A stretch of DNA of 64,000 bases, taken from contig JBAZUL010000004.1 in assembly GCA_041661405.1 (NCBI GenBank), forward strand, positions 15,309 to 79,308, written 5' to 3'. Shown piece by piece: positions 6,841 to 64,000 of this stretch. The position numbers and the translations under genes are program-made. Source of the DNA: Patescibacteria group bacterium. GTDB lineage: Bacteria > Patescibacteriota > Patescibacteriia > Patescibacteriales > JBAZCA01. The notes beneath the pieces were generated by a model. That model did no database searches. It saw only the letters and a list, made by a program, of their open reading frames with translations, and had not been told where the DNA came from. The first letter of the stretch is position 1. Each line of letters opens with the position of its first letter.

Positions 6841-6897
6841 CACTGACCTGCCTGCCGGTAGGCAGGTTATCACTGAAGACACTGATTTCACTGATTC
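6841..6897. repeat. Word-plus-palindrome module (CACTGA words around core ACCTGCCTGCCGGTAGGCAGGTT)
   Basis: The 23-mer core at 6846-6868 is identical to 59329-59351. CACTGA words occur at 6841, 6871, 6881 and 6891. Confidence 0.85.
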
Positions 6898-13587: not shown

Positions 13588-14217
13588 ATGTTACGGAAAG
13601 TGTTTTTTGCTTTTTTGGCAATCGTTGGCCTGAGCGTTCTTTGCTCGGTCTATGTTGGCTCGGTAATTTTGGAGACGGCATGGGCCGACGAGCGGCCCAT
13701 AAAGATCGAGCCAGTTGACACAACCGGCGCCGATGTTTATCTTTTGGTTGGTCAAATGTGCAAATACGGGGATGGCCTGTGGTATAAGCAGGTCATATTG
13801 CTAAATGGGACACCTGCCCCGCCGGTAAACCACCCGATATATGCATACTTGGCCACACTGACCCTGCCGGCGGACGGGCAGGGAACAATCGGGGAGATCC
13901 GCTCCCCGAAAACGTTCGCTTTCACAAAAAACCAAACTGCTCTCATTCCCCGGTGCCAGATCATCGGCACCGAAGCCCGGGTCAATTTCGCTCAACAGTG
14001 GTTCCAAGGGAGGAAACTTCCTCTGAAAATCACGACCCGGGCAACGGAAGTGAAAGGGCGAGGAACGGTGGGTATCCTGGTCTACCCGCCGCATTCGTTT
14101 GACTACGCTTTTGTTCCAATTTCTGACCAGGAAATTGAGGCGAACGACTTTCGAATGTTTGACAACATCTGGAACTTGATCGCCTCTGAGCACCTCAAGG
14201 CCGCGACTGGTAACTAG
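13588..14217 (+). CDS. Hypothetical secreted protein (GC-rich islet 2)
   Basis: AAAGGAGG lies upstream of the ATG. The N-terminal signal is MLRKVFFAFLAIVGLSVLCSV. The gene is GC-rich relative to its neighbours. No family recognised. Confidence 0.55.
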   Translation: MLRKVFFAFLAIVGLSVLCSVYVGSVILETAWADERPIKIEPVDTTGADVYLLVGQMCKYGDGLWYKQVILLNGTPAPPVNHPIYAYLATLTLPADGQGTIGEIRSPKTFAFTKNQTALIPRCQIIGTEARVNFAQQWFQGRKLPLKITTRATEVKGRGTVGILVYPPHSFDYAFVPISDQEIEANDFRMFDNIWNLIASEHLKAATGN

Positions 14218-15550: not shown

Positions 15551-16102
15551 ATGATCCTCCGTATTAATACAATAAAAAACAATTCCACCGAAATTGAAAT
15601 CGGATTGCGCGACAAGGCGGGGAAGTGGATTGTAAAAAAATATGTTAAGGCGGACCGCAAACAGGCGGAGAAGCTCCTGCCCTTGATTGAGAAGGTTGTG
15701 GCTGGCGCAGGCGGAAAGAAGGGCAAGACGGATCTAAAACAGAAGTTTAAAGTTAAAAGTATCCCGTCTCAATCTCGGCGAGCCGAGGCGGAAAAGTTAA
15801 AAGTTTTTGATTTTATTGAATCCATTGAAGTCGTGAATCAGGGCGGGACATTCACCTCTCTGCGCATCGGCGTAGCGACCGCGAACGCGCTGGGGTATGC
15901 GCTAAATGTTCCAGTTGTTGGAGTTAGTGAATTTGAAAAAGTGGGTATAAAGTCCAGGCCGGATGATGCGCATTGTGAAAAGTTCAAAGTTACCTTGCCT
16001 GCCGACAGGCAGGAAAGTCCAAAGTCCAAAGTTAATTTTGATATCGTCGCGCCGGAATACGACAAAGAACCGAATATTACGCTCAAAGTTCATAACCCGT
16101 AA
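15551..16102 (+). CDS. tsaB: TsaB-like (t6A biosynthesis, YeaZ family) mini-protein carrying two repeat-derived inserts
   Basis: NQGGTFTSLRIGVATANALGYALNVPVVGV matches the TsaB GPGSFTGLRIG...P..GV core. The N-terminus MILRINT resembles the family start. Confidence 0.55.
   Translation: MILRINTIKNNSTEIEIGLRDKAGKWIVKKYVKADRKQAEKLLPLIEKVVAGAGGKKGKTDLKQKFKVKSIPSQSRRAEAEKLKVFDFIESIEVVNQGGTFTSLRIGVATANALGYALNVPVVGVSEFEKVGIKSRPDDAHCEKFKVTLPADRQESPKSKVNFDIVAPEYDKEPNITLKVHNP
15737..15808 (+). repeat. In-frame repeat module A inside tsaB-like CDS
   Basis: The palindromic core ATCCCGTCTCAATCTCGGCGAGCCGAGGCGGA (15761-15792) is flanked by a perfect 12-nt direct repeat AAAGTTAAAAGT (15749-15760 and 15793-15804). 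The core recurs at 21719-21754. Confidence 0.85.
15977..16034 (+). repeat. In-frame repeat module B inside tsaB-like CDS
   Basis: The core TGCCTGCCGACAGGCA (about 15996-16013) is a variant of the 6846/59329 core. It is flanked by AAAGTTCAAAGTT / AAAGTCCAAAGTCCAAAGTT words, and the direct repeat CAAAGTTA occurs at 15985 and 16027. Confidence 0.8.
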
Positions 16103-16869: not shown

Positions 16870-17868
16870 ATGGAATATAATCACATACCGGTAATGCTCA
16901 ACGAGGCTTTGGAATATCTAAACCCGAAGCCCGGCGGTTACTATATTGACTGCACTTTGGGAGGAGGAGGATATACCCGGGCGATAGCTGAACGAATCGG
17001 TGAAGCGGGAAAAGTATTAGCCATTGATGCCGATGAGCTGGCGATAGAAAATTCAAAGTTAAAAGTTCAAAGTTTAAAGTTAGAGAATATTATTTTATCC
17101 CATGCGAATTTCAGGAATTTATCAACAATTATCAAGGAAAATTTCCCTGAGCCAGGCGTTAAGTTTGACGGCGTTGTATTTGATCTTGGTCTATCAAGCG
17201 CTCAGCTCTCGCGTGAAACCGGAGGTTTTTCTTTTAAAATGGCTGAAGCTGGATTAGACATGGCTTTTGGAATGCCGAATGGCGGATGCCGAATGGCGGA
17301 TGATGGAAGCCGGAGGCCGGAAAACGGTTGCCGAAGCACGGAAGAAATTGTTAATTCGTGGCCGAAAGATGATCTGGCTGGGATATTTATGGAATTCGGC
17401 GAAGAAAGGTTTGCCTGGCGGATTGCCGAAAAGATTGCCGAAAAAAGGAAAAAGAAAAAAATAAAAACCGTCGGTGAGCTGGTTGAGATAATAAACATGG
17501 CGGTGCCGGCCTTTTACAAGAGAGGAAAAATTCATCCGGCGACGAAAGTTTTTCAGGCGTTAAGAATTGCCACTAATGACGAACTCGGGGCTTTAAGCGA
17601 AGTCCTGCCGCGGGCGGCGGATTCCTTAAAAGAAGGAGGCAGGCTGGTTATTGTTTCTTACCACAGTCTTGAGGACCGGATAGTAAAAAAGTTTTTTAAA
17701 GATAACTCGCTGAAAAACGTAAAACAATCAAAATACGGCGAAAAAGAGGATAGCAGAAAAGCCGATTTAAAAATTTTAACGAAAAAAGTCATTATCCCCT
17801 CCTACGAAGAAATAAAAAATAATCCGCGGTCGCGAAGCGCGAAGCTAAGAGCGGCGGAGAAATTATAA
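16870..17868 (+). CDS. rsmH: 16S rRNA (cytosine1402-N4)-methyltransferase RsmH, with low-complexity inserts
   Basis: HIPVMLNEALEYL, DCTLGGGGYT, FDLGLSSAQL, VSYHSLEDRIVK and NPRSRSAKLR motifs are all present. Confidence 0.9.
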   Translation: MEYNHIPVMLNEALEYLNPKPGGYYIDCTLGGGGYTRAIAERIGEAGKVLAIDADELAIENSKLKVQSLKLENIILSHANFRNLSTIIKENFPEPGVKFDGVVFDLGLSSAQLSRETGGFSFKMAEAGLDMAFGMPNGGCRMADDGSRRPENGCRSTEEIVNSWPKDDLAGIFMEFGEERFAWRIAEKIAEKRKKKKIKTVGELVEIINMAVPAFYKRGKIHPATKVFQALRIATNDELGALSEVLPRAADSLKEGGRLVIVSYHSLEDRIVKKFFKDNSLKNVKQSKYGEKEDSRKADLKILTKKVIIPSYEEIKNNPRSRSAKLRAAEKL

Positions 17869-25420: not shown

Positions 25421-25506
25421 TGATTAGTTAATTAGGAAATTAGTTAATTAGTTAATTAGGAAATTTATCTATTCCCAAATTAACCGATTAACTAATCAAC
25501 CAATCC
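25421..25506 (+). repeat. TTAGTTAATTAGG word hairpin directly after the rpmJ stop
   Basis: GATTAGTTAATTAGGAAATTAGTTAATTAGTTAATTAGG opposes AATTAACCGATTAACTAATCAACC. Same word family as 28163 and 43991. Confidence 0.8.
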
Positions 25507-25899
25507 ATGGCATTAAGAATAGCGGGGGTTACGCTCCCTAACGAAAAAAGAATAGAAATCGCTTTGACCTATATTTTTGGCATTGGGAAAAAAAAATCCA
25601 ATGATATTTTAACGGCGGCCAAAGTAAATCCTGACACGAGGGTTAAAGATATAAACGAAGAAGACGCCAATCGGGTTCGTGAAATTGTTGAAAAGAATAA
25701 CAAGGTTGAAGGGGAGTTAAAACGGGACATCATAAGCAATATTAAAAGGCTTAAAGAAATAGGCAGTTACCGGGGTAGCCGCCATATCAAAGGACTGCCC
25801 TCAAGAGGGCAACACACCAAAACCAATACCCGGACCGTCCGCGGCAACATAAGAAAAACCATGGGATCGGGAAGAAAGCCGGCCGGACAAAAAACATAA
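25507..25899 (+). CDS. rpsM: Ribosomal protein S13
   Basis: [11 protein letters not shown]...[20 protein letters not shown]. Confidence 0.95.
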
Positions 25900-26018
25900 A
25901 TCAATCTTCAATTTTTAAATCTTCAATCTGCAACTATTGAATTTGTGATTCACTTGACTGATTAAAAATACTGAATTTTAGATAATTGAAGATTGAAGAT
26001 TGAAAAATTGAATAAATT
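25900..26018 (+). repeat. TCTTCAAT / ATTGAAGA word hairpin directly after the rpsM stop
   Basis: It begins TAAATCAATCTTCAATTT, nearly the same as TAAATCAATCTACAATTT at 45287. The right arm is AATTGAAGATTGAAGATTGA. Confidence 0.8.
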
Positions 26019-26615: not shown

Positions 26616-26682
26616 AGTTAAAAGTTCAAAGTGTAATGTTAAAAGTTGCGATTCCTTAACTTTCAACTTTGAACTTTTAACT
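26616..26682 (+). repeat. Perfect 17-bp AAAGTTCAAAGT word hairpin between rpsK and rpsD
   Basis: AGTTAAAAGTTCAAAGT (26616-26632) is the exact reverse complement of ACTTTGAACTTTTAACT (26666-26682). The same words occur in rsmH and tsaB. Confidence 0.9.
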
Positions 26683-26696
26683 TGAGCGAAGCGATT

Positions 26697-27346: not shown

Positions 27347-28162
27347 ATGGAAACCATAGCTTTACCCCAGAACGTGGAATTTAACAAAGGCGCCGGACCC
27401 CATGAATCTCTGGCGTCCATTTATCCCTGCTACCCAGGCTACGGAATTACTCTCGGCAATTCGCTTCGCCGGGTGCTTCTTTCCAGTCTGCCGGGAGCGG
27501 CTGTAATCGGTGTAAAAATAAAAGGAGCGGACCATGAATTCATGTCGCTTCCGCACGTCAAAGAAGATGTTCTGGAAATAATTTTGAATTTAAAAAAATT
27601 GAGACTGAAAGTTTTTTCCGACGAACCAATAATACTTAAACTTAGCGCTCATGGCGAGAAAAAAGTAAAAGCCGGGGATATCGCCAAATCCAGCCAGATT
27701 GAGATAATTAACCCGGAGCTTGTTATCGCCGGAATCACCGACATGGCCGGCAATCTGGAGATGGAAATTCACGTCGCCCAGGGCAAAGGCTATGAGCCGG
27801 TTGAAGCCAGGGAAAAGAAAAATTCTGAAATCGGCTATATTGAGATAGATTCCATTTTTACGCCGGTGCTCAAGGTCGGAATTGACATTGAAAACATCCG
27901 CGTCGGCAAGATGACTAACTGGGAAAAGCTTAAACTGGACATAAAAACCGACGGGACCATGGAACCCGAAGAAGCTTTTGAAAAAGCGGCTAAAATATTG
28001 ATTGAACAGTTTAAAGCTTTAGTCGGAAAAGAAAAAGCGACGGACGAAGCCGGGGAAGCGAAAGAAGTTTTGGAAAGCGAGGCCGGCGACGGCGACGCGT
28101 CCGAGGCTGAAGAAGGAGTTAAAGAATCCGGAAAGAAGCGGGGAAGGCCGAAGAAAGGATAA
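27347..28162 (+). CDS. rpoA: RNA polymerase alpha subunit, N-terminal domain only, with acidic tail and terminal AT-hook-like KKRGRPKKG
   Basis: Alpha-NTD motifs are present (GYGITLGNSLRRVLLSSLPGAAV). The protein is 271 aa. No helix-hairpin-helix alpha-CTD sequence follows about residue 225. Confidence 0.85.
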   Translation: METIALPQNVEFNKGAGPHESLASIYPCYPGYGITLGNSLRRVLLSSLPGAAVIGVKIKGADHEFMSLPHVKEDVLEIILNLKKLRLKVFSDEPIILKLSAHGEKKVKAGDIAKSSQIEIINPELVIAGITDMAGNLEMEIHVAQGKGYEPVEAREKKNSEIGYIEIDSIFTPVLKVGIDIENIRVGKMTNWEKLKLDIKTDGTMEPEEAFEKAAKILIEQFKALVGKEKATDEAGEAKEVLESEAGDGDASEAEEGVKESGKKRGRPKKG

Positions 28163-28218
28163 TTAGTTGATTAGTTAATTGGTTAATTAGGATTGCGTTA
28201 ATAACTAATTAACCAAGG
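28163..28218 (+). repeat. TTAGTTGATTAG word hairpin directly after the rpoA stop
   Basis: TTAGTTGATTAGTTAATTGGTTAATTAGGA differs at 1 of 30 nt from 43991-44020. The right arm is CTAATTAACCAA. Confidence 0.85.
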
Positions 28219-28246
28219 AGCCAGTCCGCAATTTAAATAAATACGT

Positions 28247-35515: not shown

Positions 35516-37495
35516 CTATTTTACCCCATACTTAAACACGTAATCCTGTCCGTTGCAAAAGGCCTTAAAAGAATCAGCCGAGAGTTTAGCCTCGTCTAAA
35601 ACTTTGGGAAATTCAAACCAGTATTTGTTTAAGACAAAATAGCCGGTTTTAACGTCCGCCAGGTTCATGGCCTTATTTATCCTTACGGCCGTCGGCTTAT
35701 CGTAAACCATGGCTAAATAATACTGGTAAAGCGCGCCGCCGGTCGGAATCGGGTAATTAAAAATTTCTTCGCCGGTTTTCGTTTTTACGTAATTAGTAAA
35801 GCCGAATTCGTAAAGAGCCCCGGCCGAAACCTGCTGGTTGGCAAGGACAATATATTTTTCTCCGGCCGCGTCCGCGTTAATCCACTTTATCGCTTCTAAA
35901 TCACAGGCTCCGGTTGAATAGCCCCGGGAATTAAAATAAGCGTCATAGCGCGGGTAAGAAATATAGAGCGAGGCAATGATAAGAACCGCGAAAAATATCA
36001 GGTTGGAATAAAGGACAAGTCCCGCGGAAGTGGTGATTTTTTTGACATACCAGCCAAAGATTAGAAAAATGAACGGTAGGAGAAACATGAAAGAAAGAAA
36101 TAAAATCCGGTCCGAATAAGCTGAGCGTTCGTAATTTATAAGAAAGCTGAAAGAAAGGGCTTCGGTCAAAAGATAGGAAAAAAAGAGCGAGATTGCCATG
36201 AAAAAATATGCCTGGTATTTTTTAAATCGCTTTTGGTAAATCGCGAAACCGATCCCGGTTAGCGCGATAAGCAGAAAAATTTTTGCTCCGTTTTGGGTGA
36301 TCAAATAGGCAAAATTAAGAAAAATGTTCTCGCGGTTGGGAAAGCTTAAAAAAAGATTAGCCGCGATTGAAGTAAAAATTTCCGAAAGACCGGCAAGGGG
36401 GGTTTCGCGCGGCCCGGCGGTCTGCTTTTCAAAAATATAAAAAGCGGCCGGGAGCGACAAAGCGGACGAGGAGTAAATTAAGAGATAGATATATTTTCTA
36501 AACAACGGCATTAAAATTTTTAATTTTTGCCCGTCTTTCGCGAGATACGCGTGAAGCAGACCAGCCAATGAAAAAAATATGAGCGGCAGACCGGCCAGCG
36601 GATGGATTATAAAGGCGGCCAGCGATAAAAGAAGGAGAAGGAAAAAATCCGCCGGTTTTTTCGCCCGAAGCCCGAGGAGAATGACGATGAGGGCAATAAG
36701 GAAAGCCAGGTTCTGCGGCGTGGTTTGGATTAAAAAAGAAAAGGGAAAGATCAGAAGCAGAGCCGCGGAAAAAACCGGGTTTTCATGGCCTTCGGAGCGG
36801 AAAGTTTTTACGGCCAGGGCGGGTAAGACAAGGGCGGCGAGCGCCGGAACCAGGAAAGTATTTATCCAGCCAAGCGGAATGAAAAATAGTTTATGGAGAA
36901 TTATGGCCAGTCCGTAATAGCCTGAGTAGTAGATGGTTTTCGGCGCGATAAAGCCGGCCGCGCCAATCACTTTCAGGGCGGCGGCGTGGATGAAAGGATC
37001 AAACCCGTAGCCTATTTTGTAAATTATGACGGCGACAGCGAATGAAAGGAAAAAGTGAAAGAAAATAAGTATTATGTATTTTGTATTATGTATTTTGTAT
37101 TTGAAAAATTGAGAAGTCAAGTATATAAGTAATAACGAGGCGAGAAAATAAAATACGAAAAAGTAAGCCGGTATAACCTGCCAGGGCGAGATTATGGCCT
37201 GATTCGTGCGGCTAATAAATAAAGAATAGAAAGCCATTCCCGAAAAGATTAAATAGAGGCTGGCCGGTAAAATGGCTGTGAGCCAGTTTTTCAGGCTGAT
37301 TTTTTTTTCAGCCGGTTCATACAAAGCCGCGAGTTTTTCTTCCCCGAGGACAAAATAGGGAAGAAACTTCCAGCCAAAAGCAATAGTAATGGCGGCGCTA
37401 AGAAAGATTCCGATAGAATCAAGCCGGTAAAAATAATAAACCAGTCCGCTGGAAAGCGATAAAATTGAGACAAAAGCCAGGACTATGTTTAGCAT
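35516..37495 (-). CDS. Polytopic membrane protein with C-terminal soluble domain (possible GT-C-like, unassigned)
   Basis: 659 aa with more than 12 hydrophobic segments. No motif recognised. It contains an exact 14-nt tandem duplication at 37070-37097. Confidence 0.6.
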   Translation of the reverse strand: MLNIVLAFVSILSLSSGLVYYFYRLDSIGIFLSAAITIAFGWKFLPYFVLGEEKLAALYEPAEKKISLKNWLTAILPASLYLIFSGMAFYSLFISRTNQAIISPWQVIPAYFFVFYFLASLLLIYLTSQFFKYKIHNTKYIILIFFHFFLSFAVAVIIYKIGYGFDPFIHAAALKVIGAAGFIAPKTIYYSGYYGLAIILHKLFFIPLGWINTFLVPALAALVLPALAVKTFRSEGHENPVFSAALLLIFPFSFLIQTTPQNLAFLIALIVILLGLRAKKPADFFLLLLLSLAAFIIHPLAGLPLIFFSLAGLLHAYLAKDGQKLKILMPLFRKYIYLLIYSSSALSLPAAFYIFEKQTAGPRETPLAGLSEIFTSIAANLFLSFPNRENIFLNFAYLITQNGAKIFLLIALTGIGFAIYQKRFKKYQAYFFMAISLFFSYLLTEALSFSFLINYERSAYSDRILFLSFMFLLPFIFLIFGWYVKKITTSAGLVLYSNLIFFAVLIIASLYISYPRYDAYFNSRGYSTGACDLEAIKWINADAAGEKYIVLANQQVSAGALYEFGFTNYVKTKTGEEIFNYPIPTGGALYQYYLAMVYDKPTAVRINKAMNLADVKTGYFVLNKYWFEFPKVLDEAKLSADSFKAFCNGQDYVFKYGVK

Positions 37496-42926: not shown

Positions 42927-43994
42927 ATGCCTATAAAAATAAAACCAATCACTGACGAAAAATCCTGGCAAGATTTTGAGAAGATTCGCGCGCCGCATAC
43001 TTTTCTGCAAACCTGGGAATGGGGAGCCGCGCAGGAGCTTCTTGGCAATAAAATTTTTCGGCTGGGGATTTACGGCAACGGCAAAATTCAGGGAACCGCT
43101 TTTGCTTATAAAATCAGCGCCCGGCGGGGATCGTTTTTGTTCTGTCCGCACGGCCCGTCAATTGACTGGAAATGCTCTGAATTTCCGCAAAATACGAAAA
43201 AAACAAAATACGAAAATTTTGATAATTTTCGGGCGCTGGCCGGTTATTTGCGCGAACTGGGAAAAAGCGAGAGAGTGGGATTCGTTCGGATTAGTTCGCT
43301 GGCTCCGGATAATGATGACATGAAAAAACTTTTTCGGGATTCCGGTTTTATTTCGGCGCCGGTTCATATGATGCATCCGGAAAACGCCTGGATCCTTGAT
43401 ATTGACCGGCCGGAAGAAGAAATAATCGGCGCCATGAAAAAAAGAACCCGCTATTCAATCCGCAAAGCGGAAAAAGACGGCATAAAAATTACGACATCAG
43501 CCAATCCGGCCGACGTGAGGCTATTTTATGAAATGTATCTTGAAACCGCCAGACGGCAGAAATTCGTCCCGTTTTCGGAGAGCTATATCCGGCGCGAATT
43601 TGAAATATTCCGGAAAAATAATAAAGCCCTGATGTTTTTTGCTTATTTTAAAGGGAAACTCATTTCCGCGGCTGTAATTATTTTTTCTTCTAAAATGGCT
43701 TTTTATCATCACGGCGCTTCAATCCGGTCGGATAATTCCGGCCTCACGGCCTCGGAATTACTGCAATGGAACGTCATCCTTGAAGCCCGGCACCGGGGAC
43801 TCGCTAGCTATAATTTTTGGGGCATCGCGCCGGAGAATTGCCCGAAACATCCTTGGCACGGTTTGACAACTTTTAAAAAAGGTTTTGGAGGACATCCGGA
43901 AAATTATCTGCACGCCCAAGACCTTGTAATTTCGCCGAAATATTGGTTAAATTACATAGTGGAAACGGTAAGACGGTGGAAGAGGGGATATTAG
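42927..43994 (+). CDS. FemAB/FemX-family aminoacyl-tRNA-dependent peptidyl/aminoacyl transferase
   Basis: FLQTWEWGAAQE, MKKRTRYSIRKAEKDGI, YHHGAS, LQWNVILEARHRG..YNFWGI and TTFKKGFGG motifs. The ATG at 42927 is preferred over the GTG at 42888. Confidence 0.8.
   Translation: MPIKIKPITDEKSWQDFEKIRAPHTFLQTWEWGAAQELLGNKIFRLGIYGNGKIQGTAFAYKISARRGSFLFCPHGPSIDWKCSEFPQNTKKTKYENFDNFRALAGYLRELGKSERVGFVRISSLAPDNDDMKKLFRDSGFISAPVHMMHPENAWILDIDRPEEEIIGAMKKRTRYSIRKAEKDGIKITTSANPADVRLFYEMYLETARRQKFVPFSESYIRREFEIFRKNNKALMFFAYFKGKLISAAVIIFSSKMAFYHHGASIRSDNSGLTASELLQWNVILEARHRGLASYNFWGIAPENCPKHPWHGLTTFKKGFGGHPENYLHAQDLVISPKYWLNYIVETVRRWKRGY
43188..43218 (+). repeat. 16-nt-period AAAATACGAAAA word repeat translated inside femX-like CDS
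   Basis: CAAAATACGAAAAAAACAAAATACGAAAATT differs at 1 of 31 nt from the intergenic 51560-51590. Here it encodes QNTKKTKYENF. Confidence 0.9.
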
Positions 43995-44074
43995 TTGATT
44001 AGTTGATTGGTTAATTAGGAAAAATATATTAACCAACCAACTAATTAACTAATCAACCAATTAACCAATTAACT
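43991..44074 (+). repeat. TTAGTTGATTAG word hairpin spanning the femX-like stop to the next ATG
   Basis: The left arm TTAGTTGATTAGTTGATTGGTTAATTAGG contains the TAG stop (43992-43994). The right arm is TTAACCAACCAACTAATTAACTAATCAACC. Confidence 0.85.
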
Positions 44075-45289
44075 ATGTTTGAGCGAACAAAAGATCTAAA
44101 ACTCTCGGTAATCAAGCAGATGGAATTAAAGGCGGCGAAAATCCCCGACGTGATATCACTCGCTCAGGGCGTGCCGAGCTTTGACACTCCGCAGTTCATA
44201 AAAAGGCGGGTGGAAAAAGAATTGAAAAATCAGGTAATTTCAAAATATTCGCTCTCGCCCGGGATGATGGAACTGCGGGAGCTTTTTGAGGCGCATCTGG
44301 CTAAGGAAAACATGCATTACGACTGGGAAACGGAGATTCTTGTTACGGTCGGAGCGATTGAAGCGCTAACCGCGACTATCCTGGCGCTTACCATGCCCGG
44401 CGATGAAATTCTCGTTCCTGAGCCGGCTTATACTTCCTATCGCGAAGTGATTACCCTTGCCGGATGCAATCCGGTTTACGCGCCGTTAAACGAAGAAAAA
44501 GACTGGGGGCTTGAGATGGCTGAAATTGAAAATGCCATCACCCCGAAAACCAAAGCCATAATCTATTCCAACCCTTCCAATCCGACCGGGACGATTTTCT
44601 CCAAATCTCAACTTTTAGAACTCGTGGAATTCGTAAAAAAACACGATATTTTCCTTATTACCGACGAGCTTTACAAGGATTTTGTTTTTGATCCTTCCTA
44701 CCTTGAAAACGGCCGGCTCTTTTCGGTCGCCGAGATTCCTGAGATCCGGGAAAAGGTAATCCGAATTTTTAGCCTCTCAAAATTATTCGCCATGACTGGC
44801 TGGCGGGTCGGCTTTCTCCATAGCGACGCCAAAAACGTCAAGGAGATTTTAAAAGTCCATGACTGCCTTGTTACTTGCGCGCCGGTAATTTCCCAGGTCG
44901 CGGCTATGGGCGCACTTGAGGGTTGCGAGGAAAATATTACTAATTTTAACGTTGAATTCCAGAAACGTCGGGATCTGATCTGCGCGCGACTTGATAAGCT
45001 CGCCAAATATTTCAGTTACGCCAAGCCTCAGGGAGCCTATTATATTTTCCCGAAAATTAAACCTGAGGCTTTTCCAAAAATGAAAAAGGCCGTAAATTCA
45101 AAAGGCGCGGAAGTGATTGATTCATGGGAATTTTGCGTTGATCTCCTGGAAAAAGCCAAAGTCGGCACTGTTCCCGGGTTTGCTTTTGGGCCATCAGGCG
45201 AAGGGCATTTCCGAATGAATTTTGCCAAGAGCGAGGAAAACATCAATGACGCTTTTGACCGGATAGAAAAATACTGTGAGAATCAATAA
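44075..45289 (+). CDS. Class I/II PLP aminotransferase (aspartate/aromatic-type)
   Basis: LAQGVPSFDTP, NPSNPTG, and SLSKLFAMTGWRVGF (SxSK lysine). Confidence 0.8.
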   Translation: MFERTKDLKLSVIKQMELKAAKIPDVISLAQGVPSFDTPQFIKRRVEKELKNQVISKYSLSPGMMELRELFEAHLAKENMHYDWETEILVTVGAIEALTATILALTMPGDEILVPEPAYTSYREVITLAGCNPVYAPLNEEKDWGLEMAEIENAITPKTKAIIYSNPSNPTGTIFSKSQLLELVEFVKKHDIFLITDELYKDFVFDPSYLENGRLFSVAEIPEIREKVIRIFSLSKLFAMTGWRVGFLHSDAKNVKEILKVHDCLVTCAPVISQVAAMGALEGCEENITNFNVEFQKRRDLICARLDKLAKYFSYAKPQGAYYIFPKIKPEAFPKMKKAVNSKGAEVIDSWEFCVDLLEKAKVGTVPGFAFGPSGEGHFRMNFAKSEENINDAFDRIEKYCENQ

Positions 45290-45356: not shown

Positions 45357-45431
45357 AGGGCTTGTAGTACAGTGGTAGTACGCCGCATTCGCATTGCGGA
45401 GACGGGAGTCCGATTCTCCCCAAGTCCACCA
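45357..45431 (+). tRNA. tRNA-Ala(CGC)-like gene with encoded CCA and non-canonical features
   Basis: Hand-folded cloverleaf: D stem GTAC/GTAC with GG in the loop; anticodon arm CCGCA-TTCGCAT-TGCGG (anticodon CGC); T arm GGGAG-TCCGATT-CTCCC; 3' end CAAGTCC-A-CCA. The acceptor 5' strand reads GGGCCTTG. That gives either a C3-U70 mismatch, or G3-U70 with a bulged C. The T loop has C at position 55. Confidence 0.7.
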
Positions 45432-54299: not shown

Positions 54300-54302
54300 A
54301 AA

Positions 54303-54388
54303 TAAGTTATAAAGTTATAAAGTAAAAAGTTTAAAGTATTATATTTATACTTTTAGCCTTATACTTTATAACTTTAAACTTTATAACT
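54303..54388. repeat. GTTATAAAG / CTTTATAAC word hairpin in the clpB leader
   Basis: AGTTATAAAGTTATAAAGTAAAAAGTTTAAAGTAT opposes ATACTTTATAACTTTAAACTTTATAACT. Confidence 0.8.
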
Positions 54389-54401
54389 ATAAAAACATTA
54401 T

Positions 54402-57281: not shown

Positions 57282-58235
57282 TCAATTTTCAATTAATGTT
57301 TTTTCAGATAGATGTAAGATTAGTAATCTGTTATGACCCTTGAGGTCTTTTTTTATTTCCAGCCGCGCGTCCGGCAGATATTTTTTTATTATTTTTTTTA
57401 ATATTATGGTCTGCCGGGGGTCAAACTCAAAAAAGCAGGTAATGTTTTTTTTGTAGCTTGATGCAAGAACAGTAATTTGTTTTAACAACTTTTCGTAAAG
57501 TTGTAAGCCGTTTTTTCCAGTGTAAAGGGCGACAGGAGGCTCAAATTTTAAACCGATAGAGTCCTGGGAGCAGTTATTTTTCCAGGCCTTCCAGCCGTAG
57601 GGAAGATTGGCAGTGATTATTATTTTTGATTTTAGATTTAAGATTTTAGATTTAAGAATCGGTTCCAGCAGGTTGCCGCGAAAGAATTTAATTTTTTTTT
57701 CAACGCCGTGAAGTTTGGCGTTTTTTTTGGCGACAGAAAGGGCGGGTCTGGAAATGTCAGTGGCGAGGAAAGTGAATACTGAATGATGATTGATGAATAG
57801 AGGGTGATCAGCGGAAGACAAAAAAGAGTTGTGATTTATCAGCTTAGCTAGTGTTATTGCAATACAGCCTGAGCCTGTTCCGACATCAATAATTATGGTG
57901 TTATTATTAGTTTTAGGTTTTTGATTGCGAGTTATGGGTTGCGAGTTATGAATCGTGAGATTTAGAACTTCATCCACCATTAATTCTGTTTCCGGGCGGG
58001 GAACCAGGACATTATTATTGACTATGATATCCAACCCGTAAAATTCTTTGTGGCCGAGAATGTAGGCCAGAGGTTCGCCTTTTAATCTTCGCTCAATAAA
58101 ACTATCCAGCTTTCTTTGCCTGGCAGGCGATAATTTTATTTTTGGATAAGTCAAAACCCACTCCCTTGATTTATTGAGAATATGGGCTAATATAAGGTCT
58201 TTTTCAAGGGGAGAAATTTTATTCTTTACCCGCAT
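57282..58235 (-). CDS. prmC: Release-factor glutamine N5-methyltransferase PrmC with three repeat-derived inserts and NLPY in place of NPPY
   Basis: PLAYILGHKEFYGLDI, PRPETE, DVGTGSGCIAI and FEPPVAL motifs. It lies immediately downstream of prfA. Confidence 0.8.
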   Translation of the reverse strand: MRVKNKISPLEKDLILAHILNKSREWVLTYPKIKLSPARQRKLDSFIERRLKGEPLAYILGHKEFYGLDIIVNNNVLVPRPETELMVDEVLNLTIHNSQPITRNQKPKTNNNTIIIDVGTGSGCIAITLAKLINHNSFLSSADHPLFINHHSVFTFLATDISRPALSVAKKNAKLHGVEKKIKFFRGNLLEPILKSKILNLKSKIIITANLPYGWKAWKNNCSQDSIGLKFEPPVALYTGKNGLQLYEKLLKQITVLASSYKKNITCFFEFDPRQTIILKKIIKKYLPDARLEIKKDLKGHNRLLILHLSEKTLIEN

Positions 58236-58244
58236 TTGAATGTC

Positions 58245-59276
58245 TTAATTCAATCCTTTTTTTAGCTCTCCGATCATCTCGTCTAAATCGCCGTCCATCA
58301 TCCGGGAGATTGAATGCCAGGATATTTTTACGCGATGGTCGGTTACCCGGTCTTGCGGGAAATTGTAGGTGCGGATTTTTTCCGAACGGTCGCCCGAGCC
58401 GATCTGGCCTTTTCTTTCGGCGGCTTCGCGGGCGTGCCGGTCTTCTTCCATTTTCTGCAAAATCCTTGAGCGCAGAACCAGCATAGCCTTGTCTCTATTC
58501 TGCCTTTGGGATTTTTGATCCTGGCATTGCACAACGACGCCGGTCGGGAGATGAGTAATCCTGACGGCTGAATTAGTCGTATTGACTTTCTGGCCGCCCG
58601 GACCGGATGCCGCGTAGGTGTCAATCCTTAAGTCTTCCGCTTTAATTTGGACGTCAATTTCATCAGCTTCGGCGAGGACGGCGACTGTCGCGGCCGAGGT
58701 ATGGATGCGGCCGGCTTTTTCGGTCTCCGGCACGCGCTGGACTCTATGAGTTCCGGCTTCGTATTTTAAACTGCTGTAAACATTTTTTCCTTCAATGGAA
58801 AAAGTTATATCTTTAAATCCGCCGAGTCCGATTTGCGAAGAGTCAAGGATGTTTATTTTCCAGCCTTTTCTTTCGGCAAAGCGCGAATACATTCGGAATA
58901 AATCAGCGGCGAACAACGCCGACTCGTCGCCGCCTGTTCCGGCCCGGATTTCCATAATGATGTTTTTTTTATCAAAAGGATGAGCCGGAGTCAGTTCGGA
59001 TTTAATAAGTTCTTCCAGCTCGGATTTTCGCGTTTCCAGTTCGGTGAGTTCGGCCTGGGCCATTTCGGCCAGCTCTCCGGTCTCGGTTTTTATGATTTCA
59101 TCATTTTCTATTATTCGTCCGGCTATGGCTTTAAATTCCATGATAAACCCGGCCGCGGTTTTTAAGTCGGAATGTTCCTTTGAAACGGCTTTTAATTTTT
59201 CCGGGTTGGATATTACGGCCGGATTGGAAAGTTCGGTTTCAAGGTTTTTGAATTTTTGGAGTATGTCGTCGTACAT
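58245..59276 (-). CDS. prfA: Peptide chain release factor 1
   Basis: GGQKVNTTNSAVRITHLPTG (GGQ) and the PET tripeptide (RVQRVPETE) in the codon-recognition region. Confidence 0.9.
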   Translation of the reverse strand: MYDDILQKFKNLETELSNPAVISNPEKLKAVSKEHSDLKTAAGFIMEFKAIAGRIIENDEIIKTETGELAEMAQAELTELETRKSELEELIKSELTPAHPFDKKNIIMEIRAGTGGDESALFAADLFRMYSRFAERKGWKINILDSSQIGLGGFKDITFSIEGKNVYSSLKYEAGTHRVQRVPETEKAGRIHTSAATVAVLAEADEIDVQIKAEDLRIDTYAASGPGGQKVNTTNSAVRITHLPTGVVVQCQDQKSQRQNRDKAMLVLRSRILQKMEEDRHAREAAERKGQIGSGDRSEKIRTYNFPQDRVTDHRVKISWHSISRMMDGDLDEMIGELKKGLN

Positions 59277-59286
59277 ATTTAGAAAA

Positions 59287-59375
59287 ATGAATTATGATTT
59301 ATGAATTATACAAATTTTTAAACTCATTACCTGCCTGCCGGTAGGCAGGTTCATAATTCGCAATTCATTATTCAA
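59287..59375. repeat. ATGAATTAT word hairpin around core ACCTGCCTGCCGGTAGGCAGGTT
   Basis: The core at 59329-59351 is identical to 6846-6868. The left words have a 14-nt period (ATGAATTATGATTT ATGAATTAT). The right words are complementary (CATAATTCGCAATTCAT). Confidence 0.85.
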
Positions 59376-59448: not shown

Positions 59449-59808
59449 CTACTTTTCGGATTTTTTTTCTGTTGGTTTAACAGCGGTTTTGGCTGTTTTG
59501 ACGGCTGCGGTTTTTCCAGCCGATACTTTGGCTGAGGCCGGTTTTTTAGCGGCCGATCTCGCGGCGCGCTTTACTCTTTTTCCTTTTTTTCCGGCTGAGG
59601 CGGTTCCTTTGGCCGCTACCCGGGCGCGGAATTTTTCTACCCGGCGGGCGGTATCAACGATTTTCTGCTTGCCGGTATAAAAAGGATGGCAGGCCGAACA
59701 AACCTCGGTTTTAATTTCAGAGGCGGTTGAGCCGGTCGTAAAAGTGTTGCCGCAAGAACAGGAGACTTTTACGTTGTCGTTGTATTTCGGATGGATTTTG
59801 TCTTTCAT
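59449..59808 (-). CDS. rpmE: Ribosomal protein L31 with about 50-aa Ala/Lys-rich C-terminal tail
   Basis: [28 protein letters not shown]...[13 protein letters not shown], followed by an [30 protein letters not shown]... tail. Confidence 0.9.
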
Positions 59809-60063: not shown

Positions 60064-60124
60064 GTCCCGCCTCTCACGAGAGGCGGGACTGCGCAGAACA
60101 ACCTGCCTGTCGGCTGTGGCAGGG
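60064..60124 (-). terminator. Two GC-rich hairpins downstream of the giant surface-protein gene
   Basis: GTCCCGCCTCTC AC GAGAGGCGGGAC (60064-60089) and ACCTGCCTGTCGGCTGTGGCAGGG (60101-60124). Neither has a clear U-run. Confidence 0.4.
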
Positions 60125-60128
60125 CAAG

Positions 60129-63100
60129 CTAGCGTTTAGCGCCGCTATAGGCTATAGCGCGAACCACATCCCAAGCGGTAGCGGATTCCGGCGCGTAGCC
60201 GTAAATCGCTTTGAATGATTTTATGGCCGCGGCTTCGCTCGCTACGTTTCTTTGAGCCGGCCTTAATCCGTAAGCGATAACGGTTACGGCCGCGTCGTCA
60301 TTGGGGTTAGTCCGATCAGCCGCTCGCCGGTAAATTTTCCGGAAAGCCAGACTGGCGTTTGCTTCGGTGGTTTTATTAATTTCGGAAGGCCAGCGGCCGT
60401 TGGCGATTTTTATCGCGTCGCTCCATTCCGATTCCTTTGCCGGCAGTTTGCCAAAAGCGGATTTATAGGAATTAAGCACTCCAGCCCGTTCGCCGGCGCC
60501 GAGTTTTATTGTTGTTTCGGTTCCGTAAGAAATAAAGTTGGTTATTGCGGACTGGTCTTTCGCGGCCACTTTAAGATTCTTTATGAGCATTTTGGTAAAC
60601 TTATTGGCGATTTTTTGCTCCTCAGTCACGCTGCGTTTTATTCCGAGTTTTTCCAGGAGCGTGGAAACCGAAGCTTTTATGATTTCCGCGGCGTCAGAAG
60701 CGATAGTAGCGATCTTATCAGCGTAAGCTTTGGCGGTTTCTTCGGTTTTGGCTTTAACTTCGGCTACTGTTTCTTTGGCTTCACTGACAATTTCCTCGGC
60801 TTTTTCCGCTATCGGTGATTCTTCGGCTAAAGACGGGCAGGAACGTTTTCTTTCCGCTTCCTGGCTCGCGCTTAGGGAGCAGCCGGAAGGGGAAAAACTC
60901 TTGATGTTCCGGTATTGATAACCGTCGGCGGCGCAGGATGCCTGCCATTCATCAAATACGACCGAGGAGCAATGAGTAGTGTTCCCGGAAGCGGCGGCGG
61001 GTCCGCCGGCCGCGTTACAGCTATTGCCGCTTCTCGTATAGTTCGTATTGCAGGAAATGGAGCAATCAGCGGCGACCAGCCCGTTAGAAACAGAATTGGT
61101 TGAGCAAACCTGAAGCGCCGAGGAATAAGCTGATTCATTGCCGCCGTCATCAGCCGCGGTAATTTTGTAGTAATAGCTCGTGAAAGCCGCGGTTGTTGAA
61201 TCAGTGTAAGCGATGCCGGAAACGTCGGAAGCGTTAACCTGAGTATAAGTTGTCCCGTCGGTTGAACGATAAACTTCATATCCCAAAAGATCAGTTATGC
61301 CGGACGCGTCAGCGTTGGTTGAAACAGCGGTCCAGCCGAGGACAACTGATGAACCTCCGCCCGAAGTTTGCGCCAGACTGGCCGGAGCGGCCGGAGCGAC
61401 AGCGTCCGGCGGGTTAATAGCCGAGAATACGGTTAAGTGATTGGTCTTTCCGATAAATACCAGCTTAAAATCATAGTAGCCGCCCGTCCCGTTAGCCGCT
61501 AAATCGTCAATAAACTCTTCATAACCGGTTTGGGTCGCGCTGTCGGATTTCATTGTCCATTCGGTCGCGTTGGCGGCCAGCTTGTAATAAGCCTTTCTCG
61601 TGGTATTCAAGTTTACCCAGTTATTAGCGGTATTATCCCAATAGCCGAGAGTCTGGGTTTTTAATTTTGAATAATCCACCAGGTTCATGGCCGCGATATC
61701 GGCTTTGTAATATACAATTTCAATATCAACGTAATCGCTTAAGTTCGTTATAGCCTGGCCGGAATTATCGGTCGCGGTAACAACTTTTCCGATCCCGCCC
61801 AAAGGCTCAAAACTGGTAGTCTCGGTGACGGCTGATGTTTCCTGAATGCCAAGATTGCCGGAGGATTGGCTGGATCCGAGAGCGTTCGGCGGGGCGGTGA
61901 TCTTTACGCCAGTAGCCGAGGCGGCCGTATCATCAACTGTACCGCCGGAAGACGGGGTAATGGATTTTGATTTGGTTTTCATGGTCCAGCTCGCGTTGGC
62001 TTCCAGGATAATATTAATACTGCCGGCCGGAGTCTGAGTAGCGCCGGAGACAGTTACATTGGTCTTGGTATTGCCCGCTTTATAATTACCGTCCTTATAA
62101 CCGTCAGCGCCGGCCATTATCGCCCAAGCGCCGTTGGTAACTGGCAGGGAATAGTAGCCATTCGCGTCGGCCGGGGTATGGGCCATATTGCCGGTAGTCG
62201 CTTCCTTGGCCCAGACATAAGCGTTCGGAATATTGGTACCGCTCTCATTCTTTACATAACCGGTGATGTTCCGGGCGGCCGCGCCTAAAGCCACAGTGTT
62301 GTCCTCGCTATTAGTCGTAGCGGAAACTGAAGCCGGAGCAGAAGACATATAGCCGGACTTGTCAGCGCCTAAATTGTAATTGCCGCTTTCTAGCTTGGGC
62401 ACGGTAATAGAGAAAGTTCCGTTTGAACCGGTTTCCGCGCCAGTATGATAACCGGTATTCGGGCTGCCAATCCAAACCCAGGCGTTAGCGAGACCAGCGG
62501 AACCGTCGGTAACGGTGCCGCTAACCGTAATCATTCCAGTGGAAGCGTTTGGCAGGGTAAAGTAAACCGCCCGAGCCGCGTCAGTAACTTTTATACAGTC
62601 CTTGTCGTTAGAAAGCGCTTGGCGGCTGGCAGTATCCGGAGAGAAAAAGCCATATCCAGGGACATCCAGTCCGAAGAAATAGTATTTGCCTGCTGAAGCG
62701 CCTTTAATTTTAATCGTAGAGGTAGCGTTAAGGCCGTCAATTTTCGTTGAAAAATGATAGCCGGTCGGTTTCGGGTTGGCTCCGTCAAAGGTTACTTCAT
62801 CAACGTTTAAGAAGCCGGTTTGGGCGGCCGCGCCGTTGTTAAACTGCAGTGAAATGGTCTCTAATTCCGCGGCGGAAACCAGGATATTAGCGGTAGTCGT
62901 CGCGGCATTGACGTTAATATTGGCTGAGGAATTAGCGACCTGGTCATAAACCAGCTCCACTTCGCCGTAATTTTGGGTCCAGGTGTCAATCCGGTAATAG
63001 CCGGCCGGCAGAGACAGGCTGTAAGTTCCGTTTGAATCCGTGGAAGCGCCGTAGTCGCGTCCCTGGTAATTGCCGTTCGCGTCATAAAGCACGGCTCGGA

Positions 63101-64000
63101 GGGGGATATAGCTTTGAGCCGAACCGTCAATAGTAATACTGCCGGAAACCGTGTAATAGGTGGCGGTTCCCGAGGGTCTTAAATTAATATTGGACTGGGA
63201 GGCGGTTGAAACGGCAACGTCCGGAGAATATTGCATCCAGCCGACGTTCGGAGCGTCAGCTTCAATCCGCCAGGTTCCTGCATCAACGTATAATATGTAA
63301 TTGCCGGATGAGTCGGTCATGGTGTCGGAATGCCCGGAGCCGGTCGGCTGATACGCCCAGACCGGCGCGTAAGGGACCGCCTGGCCGCCGGAATTTAAGA
63401 CCTTGCCGGAAATGGTGAATTCGGGCCGTTTTAGTTTTAGCCTTAAGGGGTTGGTTCCGGCATTATTATTGCTCGCGTCGGATATGATCGCGCCGTCAAG
63501 ATAAATATCAGCCGTTGTATTTCCGTCAGTGCCGACTGAATTATCTTTTACTTCAACGGATTTTTCTTTGGAGCTCGGCATACCCGGCTTAAACGCGCCA
63601 ATGGTCCAGACTCCGGTAGTGCCGATTTTTAAGGTGAACTTTCCGGCAGTATCAGCCGTGGTATGGGCGCCGCCGAATCCTTGGGGCTGGTAAGCGTACA
63701 CTTCGGCATTGCCAAGACCGGAGCCGGAAGCGTCCAGCACAAAACCTTTTATTTCCTTAGTTACCTGAGATGAAATACTGAAATGGACTTTTTTGTCATT
63801 CGGCCCGGCGGAAGATTCGCGGACAGATGTAATAGTATCATTTATTGCCGGCAGAGTCGTCCAGTTGCCTTGCGGAGTCACAGTAATTGAAGTGTTCACC
63901 GCGAGCGAAGTTATCGTGCTGGTAGCCGCGGCCGCGCCGGTAGCGAAAGTTACAACATCGCCGACTTTAAAGAAATTGGTGCTCGCGACGCTTAGTGTTG
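60129..64000 (-). CDS. Giant surface protein (CarboxypepD_reg-like repeats, FN3-like domain, Cys-rich region, conserved-looking C-terminal triple repeat); 5' end outside the window
   Basis: The ORF track starts at the GTG at 63899, but the frame stays open to position 64000. At least five units are of the type (I/V)SGxV.D..G..(L/V).NA.V(W/Y)A....G.....TD..G.(F/Y).L....G.(W/Y). An FN3-like segment reads LGYEVYRSTDGTTYTQV...YYYKITAADDGGNES. Confidence 0.75.
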   Translation of the reverse strand, partial: TLSVASTNFFKVGDVVTFATGAAAATSTITSLAVNTSITVTPQGNWTTLPAINDTITSVRESSAGPNDKKVHFSISSQVTKEIKGFVLDASGSGLGNAEVYAYQPQGFGGAHTTADTAGKFTLKIGTTGVWTIGAFKPGMPSSKEKSVEVKDNSVGTDGNTTADIYLDGAIISDASNNNAGTNPLRLKLKRPEFTISGKVLNSGGQAVPYAPVWAYQPTGSGHSDTMTDSSGNYILYVDAGTWRIEADAPNVGWMQYSPDVAVSTASQSNINLRPSGTATYYTVSGSITIDGSAQSYIPLRAVLYDANGNYQGRDYGASTDSNGTYSLSLPAGYYRIDTWTQNYGEVELVYDQVANSSANINVNAATTTANILVSAAELETISLQFNNGAAAQTGFLNVDEVTFDGANPKPTGYHFSTKIDGLNATSTIKIKGASAGKYYFFGLDVPGYGFFSPDTASRQALSNDKDCIKVTDAARAVYFTLPNASTGMITVSGTVTDGSAGLANAWVWIGSPNTGYHTGAETGSNGTFSITVPKLESGNYNLGADKSGYMSSAPASVSATTNSEDNTVALGAAARNITGYVKNESGTNIPNAYVWAKEATTGNMAHTPADANGYYSLPVTNGAWAIMAGADGYKDGNYKAGNTKTNVTVSGATQTPAGSINIILEANASWTMKTKSKSITPSSGGTVDDTAASATGVKITAPPNALGSSQSSGNLGIQETSAVTETTSFEPLGGIGKVVTATDNSGQAITNLSDYVDIEIVYYKADIAAMNLVDYSKLKTQTLGYWDNTANNWVNLNTTRKAYYKLAANATEWTMKSDSATQTGYEEFIDDLAANGTGGYYDFKLVFIGKTNHLTVFSAINPPDAVAPAAPASLAQTSGGGSSVVLGWTAVSTNADASGITDLLGYEVYRSTDGTTYTQVNASDVSGIAYTDSTTAAFTSYYYKITAADDGGNESAYSSALQVCSTNSVSNGLVAADCSISCNTNYTRSGNSCNAAGGPAAASGNTTHCSSVVFDEWQASCAADGYQYRNIKSFSPSGCSLSASQEAERKRSCPSLAEESPIAEKAEEIVSEAKETVAEVKAKTEETAKAYADKIATIASDAAEIIKASVSTLLEKLGIKRSVTEEQKIANKFTKMLIKNLKVAAKDQSAITNFISYGTETTIKLGAGERAGVLNSYKSAFGKLPAKESEWSDAIKIANGRWPSEINKTTEANASLAFRKIYRRAADRTNPNDDAAVTVIAYGLRPAQRNVASEAAAIKSFKAIYGYAPESATAWDVVRAIAYSGAKR

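Follow-up and report, generated by a model that had tools for sequence, protein, structure and literature searches.

Described relatives and the present locus

The N5-glutamine methyltransferases of the PrmC/HemK type act on the glutamine of the GGQ motif in release factors. They combine an N-terminal domain that binds the release factor (PMC3152332) with a class I methyltransferase domain, in which an Asn and an aromatic residue of motif IV make the essential contacts and the motif hydrogen-bonds the Gln side chain (PMC3152332, PMC8904536). We analyzed such a gene, prmC, in a 64,000-nucleotide (64-kb) stretch of a contig from a Patescibacteria group bacterium (JBAZUL010000004.1 of assembly GCA_041661405.1, positions 15,309 to 79,308 of the forward strand; hereinafter the window, in whose coordinates positions are given). 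The gene codes for NLPY in motif IV and bears extra residues in two loops. From NLPY and three proposed inserts, the initial annotation had concluded that the gene either encodes a tolerant enzyme whose loops are decorated or is in decay. Our analysis indicates that it is very probably a working prmC, whose product would be an S-adenosylmethionine (SAM)-dependent class I methyltransferase that methylates the GGQ glutamine of release factor 1 (RF1), encoded by the adjacent gene.

Like the characterized PrmC/HemK proteins (1NV8/1SG9; 2B3T), the window protein joins a PrmC_N domain to a class I methyltransferase domain with GxGxG, has motif IV where strand beta4 ends as well as the FEP..AL segment, and is encoded directly after prfA. 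Unlike them, it has NLPY for NPPY, two loops that are each longer by about 12 residues and a clade-specific GWxxWKNN loop after motif IV, and the first N-terminal helix is missing. The mitochondrial HEMK1/Mtq1 and the eukaryotic and archaeal HEMK2/Mtq2 proteins likewise methylate the GGQ glutamine with the same motif IV chemistry (PMC8904536, PMC3152332); they differ from the window protein in that all carry NPPY, and Mtq2 additionally has no N-terminal domain and needs Trm112.

The NLPY tetrapeptide is shared with the KsgA/Dim1/DIMT1 proteins, being native in DIMT1 as N128-L129-P130-Y131, where replacement of all four residues (AAAA) yields an inactive mutant (PMC8463865). DIMT1 shows that a planar amino group can be N-methylated by an enzyme with NLPY. 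In contrast to the window PrmC, KsgA/Dim1/DIMT1 belong to a different family, act on RNA and have no PrmC_N domain; at E <= 0.01 the window protein matches ten Pfam families, none of which is the KsgA/Erm profile (RrnaAD, PF00398), so that the two have just the tetrapeptide in common. Position 2 of motif IV contributes via its main chain, and a Leu, the native residue of the KsgA/DIMT1 adenine-N6 methyltransferases, could substitute there.

Identity and genomic context of prmC

The gene is the last of a conserved three-gene row, which is also found on a syntenic sister contig (L001):

57282..58235, minus strand: prmC coding sequence, 954 nt, 317 aa, release-factor N5-glutamine methyltransferase (open reading frame (ORF) list, profile matches, AlphaFold2 model, Foldseek)
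58245..59276, minus strand: prfA (RF1), the substrate gene, 343 aa, with Pfam PCRF and RF-1 domains
59449..59808, minus strand: rpmE (L31), first gene of the rpmE-prfA-prmC row, Pfam-labelled in L001

Only 9 nt separate the prfA stop from the start of prmC, which lies downstream. The GGQ motif of the window RF1 is intact (SGPGGQKVNTT in a GGQ scan), and the rpmE-prfA-prmC order is kept both in L001 and on a further contig, L086. The prmC product scores 202.3 bits against TIGR03534, the NCBI equivalog model RF_mod_PrmC (cut-off 199.1), and 170.4 against the HemK subfamily model TIGR00536 (cut-off 115.5). Pfam recognizes PrmC_N (PF17827) at E = 1e-13, and a class I (Rossmann) methyltransferase domain bearing GxGxG comes after it. 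The best PDB sequence match is T. maritima HemK (E = 1e-25), with E. coli PrmC also among the best solved relatives. The AlphaFold2 model, for which an alignment of 119 sequences served as input, reaches a predicted local distance difference test score (pLDDT) of 89.5 and a predicted template modeling score of 0.88; its top Foldseek matches are all HemK/PrmC structures (1nv8, 1sg9 and 2b3t), with target-normalized template modeling scores of 0.79–0.84. The FEP..AL..G..GL segment typical of HemK is also conserved in the prmC alignment.

The reading frame extends over 317 codons with no stop codons or frameshifts, and two further sequencing runs, each assembled on its own, yielded contigs with the same 954 nt (100% identity). 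An assembly error is therefore excluded, the prmC DNA being the same in three assemblies. No second prmC or NPPY gene was found in the 64-kb window, whose sole other NPPY string (53715) falls in a spurious 81-codon frame. The prmC genes of the window and of L001 start about 12–14 residues later than those of other clade members (58176–58235 in the window; L001:3084–3140); as this late N-terminus is common to the sister lineage, it is old and tolerated.

Motif IV and its distribution

The two motifs that define the active site are the following:

57597..57608, minus strand: motif IV, N210-L211-P212-Y213 (NLPY), encoded by AAT CTT CCC TAC at 57608–57597, in alignment with NPPY in T. maritima HemK
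57867..57887, minus strand: motif I, DVGTGSG, SAM binding, residues 117–123

In the alignment of 119 sequences, G119, G121 and G123 of motif I are invariant, as are all four columns of motif IV, where N210, P212 and Y213 have identical counterparts in the motif of T. maritima HemK. The window protein accordingly displays the N-x-P-Y pattern and not the literal NPPY tetrapeptide. This state is shared throughout its relatives: NLPY is present in all 264 homologs retrieved (39–100% identity) and in 150/150 of the best representatives of clusters formed at 50% identity (39–59% identity), and [A/S]NLPY in each of the 120 best matches from a set of 5.8 billion proteins (44–100% identity).

To a scan of the GTDB species representatives, seeded by motifs outside motif IV, at least 80 PrmC loci from many phyla responded, with 73 genes extractable. 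Among the GTDB matches listed, 38 of these 73 genes code for NLPY. Their hosts comprise Moran-, Gracili-, Davies-, Sacchari- and Parcubacteria on the side of the candidate phyla radiation (CPR), Anaerolineae, Dehalococcoidia, Caldilineaceae, Ardenticatenaceae and Thermomicrobiaceae on the side of the Chloroflexota, and several Bacillota metagenome-assembled genomes (MAGs); NPPY is found in an Andersenbacteria MAG and in most other phyla. A rough neighbor-joining tree, with six inferred changes, groups the NLPY genes into two coherent blocks: the first consists of CPR, the second of Chloroflexota together with some Bacillota. By hand count, a release-factor gene lies directly upstream equally often for NLPY and NPPY prmC genes.

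Because NLPY occurs in 264/264 homologs and in 38/73 sampled genes, and is equally linked to release-factor genes, the literal NPPY does not define PrmC orthologs; it is a feature of the characterized members and not of the whole orthologous group. NLPY itself is best read as the ancestral and fixed form of motif IV in this lineage, that is, as a lineage-typical, selected state and no lesion. It retains the Asn that hydrogen-bonds the substrate amide, the Tyr and the second Pro.

Co-variation of motif IV with the residue after GGQ was considered and rejected: S, H, N and K all occur at that position, GGQS goes with both NLPY and NPPY, and no link emerged. A literature search found nothing pairing NLPY with PrmC or HemK. 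As a separate observation, four NLPY prmC loci (L009, L010, L048 and L011) cluster with CPR despite MAG labels of Gammaproteobacteria, Bdellovibrionales and Fimivivens, and these bins may be mislabelled or contaminated.

The resemblance to DIMT1 raises the alternative that an NLPY-type PrmC has a shifted or broadened substrate, such as another protein or a nucleic-acid amino group, instead of or besides RF1. The motif is identical to that of this adenine-N6 dimethyltransferase, the GWxxWKNN loop directly after it is strongly conserved and peculiar to the subclade, and the N-terminal domain, which binds the release factor (PMC3152332), is one helix shorter. Against these stand the passing of the PrmC equivalog model with no Pfam KsgA/Erm match, the conserved FEP..AL..G..GL segment of HemK, a fold that fits PrmC/HemK far better than other methyltransferases, and the prfA-prmC linkage, which is kept here and, by the hand count, in NLPY genes generally. 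Hence, we consider a change of substrate improbable and favor methylation of RF1 as the likely function.

Selection on prmC

The ratio of nonsynonymous to synonymous divergence (dN/dS) was obtained by the Nei–Gojobori method against the syntenic L001 contig, with which the window shares the neighborhood rpmE-prfA-prmC-GT4-WecG. The L001 PrmC is 68% identical to that of the window over the whole protein (BLASTP) and 74% identical over 290 aligned residues, and the synonymous divergence (dS) of prmC between them is about 0.67. The dN/dS values are:

prmC, whole gene: 0.27
prfA: 0.09
rpmE: 0.04
GT4: 0.14
WecG: 0.21
prmC, residues 1–75: 0.26
prmC, residues 76–190: 0.33
prmC, residues 191–260 (beta4, NLPY and FEP loop): 0.08
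prmC, residues 261–317: 0.29

Thus, prmC is the least constrained among its neighbors, yet clearly under purifying selection, which is strongest at the active site. Neither of the marks of a pseudogene, frame disruption or a dN/dS near 1, is seen. As an observation apart, synonymous divergence is also lower in the catalytic part of the gene (57470–57690 versus L001:3630–3850), where the proportion of synonymous differences is 0.30 as against 0.43–0.56 elsewhere in prmC; this may reflect nucleotide-level constraint, recombination or chance.

These values bear directly on the suggestion that the gene is decaying, with NLPY and the loop inserts being slightly deleterious and tolerated by relaxed selection in a reduced genome. 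Such a course could be argued from the dN/dS of 0.27, the highest of the five neighboring genes, from the truncated N-terminus, and from loops that are long for the clade: loop 1, before motif I, is at least as long in only 27/208 homologs, and loop 2, after it, in 19/208. It is countered by the invariance of NLPY in 264 homologs and in whole phyla, the dN/dS of 0.08 in the catalytic segment, the intact frame, the confident model, and the N-terminal truncation common to the sister lineage. Decay therefore falls as an explanation, NLPY being common in the clade and the gene under purifying selection that is strongest at its catalytic segment, and we regard it as highly improbable. The codons of NLPY and the retained DVGTGSG had been read correctly in the initial annotation, and its tolerant-enzyme alternative stands: NLPY is common in other CPR PrmC proteins, a result named beforehand as refuting decay; it aligns with the NPPY of HemK/PrmC; and the modeled fold is that of HemK/PrmC.

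Several points nevertheless weigh against a working PrmC of the standard kind. The TIGR03534 cut-off is exceeded by a margin of only 3 bits; the PrmC_N match spans profile positions 20–71 of 71, the first N-terminal helix being absent; and the dN/dS of prmC exceeds those of its four neighbors (0.04–0.21). All six PDB relatives carry NPPY, as does every solved PrmC structure, there being no structure of an NLPY PrmC, and we know of no experiment in which an NLPY PrmC methylates a release factor. The search for a further copy covered 64 kb of the genome, and a second prmC may lie outside the window. Lastly, the placement of the two loops, away from the SAM and substrate pocket and relative to the RF1 interface, is deduced from fold topology. 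On balance, we take prmC to be an intact, ordinary CPR prmC under selection, whose product is predicted to be catalytically competent.

Loop expansions and the beta4 lead-in

The initial annotation had described three repeat-derived inserts in prmC. We compared the lengths of the three segments concerned by anchored counts across 208 homologs:

RPETE to DxGTGSG (loop 1): clade median 22, range 16–85; window 32
GTGSG to D[IV]S (loop 2): clade median 24, range 8–50; window 36
DIS to NLPY: clade median 51, range 41–102; window 50

In the window these segments contain:

57897..57965, minus strand: loop 1, residues 91–113, LNLTIHNSQPITRNQKPKTNNNT, about 12 residues beyond the clade consensus
57768..57839, minus strand: loop 2, residues 133–156, INHNSFLSSADHPLFINHHSVFTF (INHNS...SVFTF), about 12 residues beyond the clade median
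57622..57657, minus strand: heptamer array CTTAAAT/CTAAAAT, encoding the native LKSKILNLKSKI, which spans a helix and a turn and reaches into the beginning of strand beta4

By these counts, loops 1 and 2 are true lineage-specific expansions of about 12 residues each, at positions that vary freely in the clade; the L001 protein has neither of them. The ancestral sequence of loop 1, (I/L)THNSQP(I/A)T, is seen in many homologs. Both loops are modeled as coil, with mean pLDDT values of 83 and 72 for the 10-residue blocks over residues 91–110 of loop 1 and of 73 and 55 for those over residues 131–150 of loop 2, and low values are confined to the blocks of these loops, residues 211–230 and the C-terminal tail. 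From class I topology, the loops would lead into the N-terminal ends of beta1 (loop 1) and, after helix A, of beta2 (loop 2), and would thus border the Rossmann sheet on its N-terminal edge, across from the SAM pocket.

The third segment, which holds an exact 14-nt tandem, is native sequence and no insertion, because its length is typical of the clade, the same 28 nt are present in L001, the pattern KSKIL.N.KSKII recurs in many homologs, and the model is confident there (pLDDT of about 94). Hence, two of the three proposed inserts hold as expansions, including that encoding INHNS...SVFTF at 57768–57839, and the KSKILNLKSK segment does not (50 residues against a median of 51).

Short-period repeats in prmC and across the window

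The tandem in the beta4 lead-in consists of GATTTTAGATTTAA repeated exactly twice at 57628–57655; it encodes LKSKILNLKS, the copies being read in different frames. Tandem Repeats Finder (TRF) reports it at 57628–57657 (period 14, 2.1 copies, 100% match) together with a period-7 array of 5.1 copies at 57622–57657. In loop 1, three units with a 14-nt period, TTGCGAGTTATGGG / TTGCGAGTTATGAA / TCGTGAGATTTAGA, lie at 57925–57966. The first two share the exact minus-strand 12-mer CATAACTCGCAA (57925–57936 and 57939–57950), whose copies, 14 nt apart, are read first as HNSQ and then as ITRN; allowing one mismatch, this 12-mer has three matches in the window where 0.22 are expected, a number reached in 0/100 shuffles. 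The third unit matches in 8/14 bases only and is unconvincing alone, and the array is absent from the TRF list at scores of at least 30. The distal half of loop 2 is again a period-7 array (TRF, 57780–57798).

Such repeats are in excess throughout the window. There are four exact tandem duplications with periods of 10–30 against a mean of 0.2 in dinucleotide-preserving shuffles, and near-exact repeats number 11 versus 0.38 at period 7, 8 versus 0.15 at period 14 and 7 versus 0.2 at period 21, both prmC repeat sites being counted among them. The 16S rRNA methyltransferase gene RsmH/MraW (16870–17868) has in-frame arrays at 17048–17082, 17272–17302 and 17421–17467, one of them with an exact 14-nt unit in 2.2 copies that encodes MPNGGCRMADDG, and its AAAGTTM heptamer array recurs at 15980–16035 and 26616. 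A further exact 14-nt tandem of 2.4 copies, GTATTATGTATTTT at 37069–37101, encodes KYKIHNTKYII within an ORF (35516–37495, minus strand) whose 659-aa product is a multi-pass membrane protein that matches no Pfam family. As RsmH also carries in-frame short tandem repeats, repeat-derived decoration is genome-wide and not special to prmC. Intergenic spacers hold inverted arrays of 7- or 8-nt AT-rich units (25430–25510, 25901–26012, 26616–26690, 28162–28225, 43989–44075 and 54301–54395). These spacer arrays are seen to form long imperfect palindromes, e.g., ATTAGTTG/ATTAGGAA facing AATTAACC, or AGTTAAA/AGTTCAA facing TTAACTT/TGAACTT, which might be terminators or protein-binding sites.

The DNA of the two inserts and of the native beta4 lead-in has a 7/14-nt period, in line with the genome-wide heptamer excess. 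Most likely, AT-rich heptamers that duplicated in tandem or slipped locally gave rise to the inserts, with selection having kept only those length changes that would preserve the frame. We rejected the alternative that they are copies of a dispersed repeat, as a BLAST search of the window with the three segments revealed no significant second copy, the best off-target match having E = 0.2; a 13/14 match beside a hairpin at 59350 has E = 3.2 and is not claimed. Regarding the initial annotation, the exact 14-nt tandem at 57628–57655 was borne out by both the sequence and TRF, whereas only the first two of its three 14-nt units in loop 1 held up, through their shared 12-mer; "repeat-derived" applies in the sense of local short-period tandem repeats and not of dispersed-element copies. 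Its observations are thereby confirmed and its overall interpretation is partly supported.

A 5.1-copy 7-nt repeat inside a coding sequence and upstream of the active site, in a genome where heptamer repeats are enriched, could in principle be a contingency locus, in which gain or loss of 7 nt toggles prmC by frameshift (phase variation). The array is, however, imperfect, with two exact 14-nt units only; the same 28 nt persist in the sister lineage at a dS of about 0.67; the sequence is identical in three independent assemblies; and the KSKIL.N.KSKII pattern is conserved across the clade at the protein level. Phase variation at 57622–57657 was rejected on account of the identity among assemblies and of the 28 nt in the sister lineage, and we hold it to be very unlikely; a native protein segment with heptameric DNA is the reading we retain. 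The wider phenomenon of repeats and hairpins is the more interesting lead.

A GC-rich hairpin associated with heptamer arrays

The heptamer arrays are accompanied by a hairpin of 20/21 nt, CCTGCCT(N)GCCGGYAGGCAGG, which is GC-rich in an AT-rich background. Its core pattern CCTGCC...GGCAGG has five copies in the window as against 0.03 expected:

6847–6866, 13863–13882, 15993–16013, 59330–59349 and 60102–60123: hairpin copies in the window
59330..59349, unstranded: hairpin CCTGCCTGCCGGTAGGCAGG between rpmE and prfA, with period-7 arrays at its flanks
15993..16013, plus strand: hairpin-family copy in a tsaB-like ORF (15551–16102), encoding LPADRQE, with AAAGTYM heptamer flanks
L001:3602–3622, L086:1830–1850 and L087:620–640: in-frame hairpins in the PrmC genes of relatives

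No hairpin is present in the window prmC (57282–58235). In L001, the beta4 lead-in of PrmC has a clean 21-nt addition, CCTGCCTTGCCGGCAGGCAGG (LPCRQAG), placed exactly at the junction of the two heptamers of the first 14-nt unit, and the heptamer array is older than the hairpin at this site. In two more distant PrmC genes the hairpin stands in-frame in loop 1, and since its codon phases differ between them, these insertions are independent events. At the peptide level, hairpin-type sequences (PTGRQ, AGRQ) occur in loop 2 of other homologs. The three repeat sites of the window prmC coincide with places that the hairpin occupies in relatives, as seen in the DNA for loop 1 and for the beta4 lead-in but in hairpin-type peptides only for loop 2; its hairpin-free heptamer arrays could be landing pads or footprints of the hairpin.

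Among the matches listed in an exact-pattern scan, the hairpin is found on more than 120 metagenome contigs. Heptamer direct repeats matching in at least 6/7 bases lie within 14 nt of it at 32% of sites as compared to 10% of controls (p = 4e-9), and the strongest period across the hairpin junction is 7. A simple 7-nt target-site duplication was rejected, as the two heptamers directly abutting 132 hairpins show no significant similarity (p = 0.19). Long open frames contain the 21-nt form at 12/13 sites and the 20-nt form at 22/88 (Fisher p = 5e-6), with random positions at 64%. Pfam-confirmed hosts on the metagenome contigs include AtpA, PurH, a Mur ligase and LigA, the last with three copies: the LigA ORF of contig L191 contains the hairpin-derived peptides PACLPAGRQNPKP, PALPAGRYNLKP and PCLAGRQEKSK, two of them flanked by heptamer-type sequence of the form KPKTPA...KP.

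We tentatively propose that the prmC loops might be one visible sign of a hitherto undescribed system of micro-elements in Patescibacteria-like genomes, consisting of a hairpin in AT-rich heptamer arrays; the hairpin would have spread or been regenerated at many sites, mostly intergenic but also in-frame in tolerant loops of essential enzymes. A literature search found no description of the hairpin sequence. The Rickettsia palindromic elements and REP-type (repetitive extragenic palindromic) elements offer a parallel, being short palindromes dispersed in a reduced genome, some of them in-frame in housekeeping genes that they do not destroy. The Rickettsia elements are roughly 100–150 nt long. 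The hairpin differs from them in its 20/21 nt, in being GC-rich in an AT-rich background and in its tie to heptamer tandem arrays.

Other features of the window

Adjoining the operon is an ORF for 1256 aa (60129–63899, minus strand) that is rich in Thr, Ser, Gly, Ala and Asn and looks like a large surface or secreted protein. A scan of the 64-kb window with Rfam gave a single match at the gathering level, a tRNA at 45358–45428 (plus strand). Promoter-like and terminator-like sites around prmC are no commoner than in shuffles.

Implications

The NPPY tetrapeptide is treated in the literature as the signature of PrmC, yet the orthologs of Patescibacteria/CPR and Chloroflexota carry NLPY. Motif-based rules would call thousands of good prmC genes inactive, and wrongly so. 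The NLPY prmC genes offer a natural experiment for telling which motif IV positions glutamine methylation depends on. Beyond this family, the hairpin and its heptamer arrays appear to have repeatedly given rise to in-frame insertions in the housekeeping proteins of these reduced genomes. If confirmed, this would help explain the many lineage-specific loop insertions in the homologs and extend the known repertoire of palindromic elements by a very small one.

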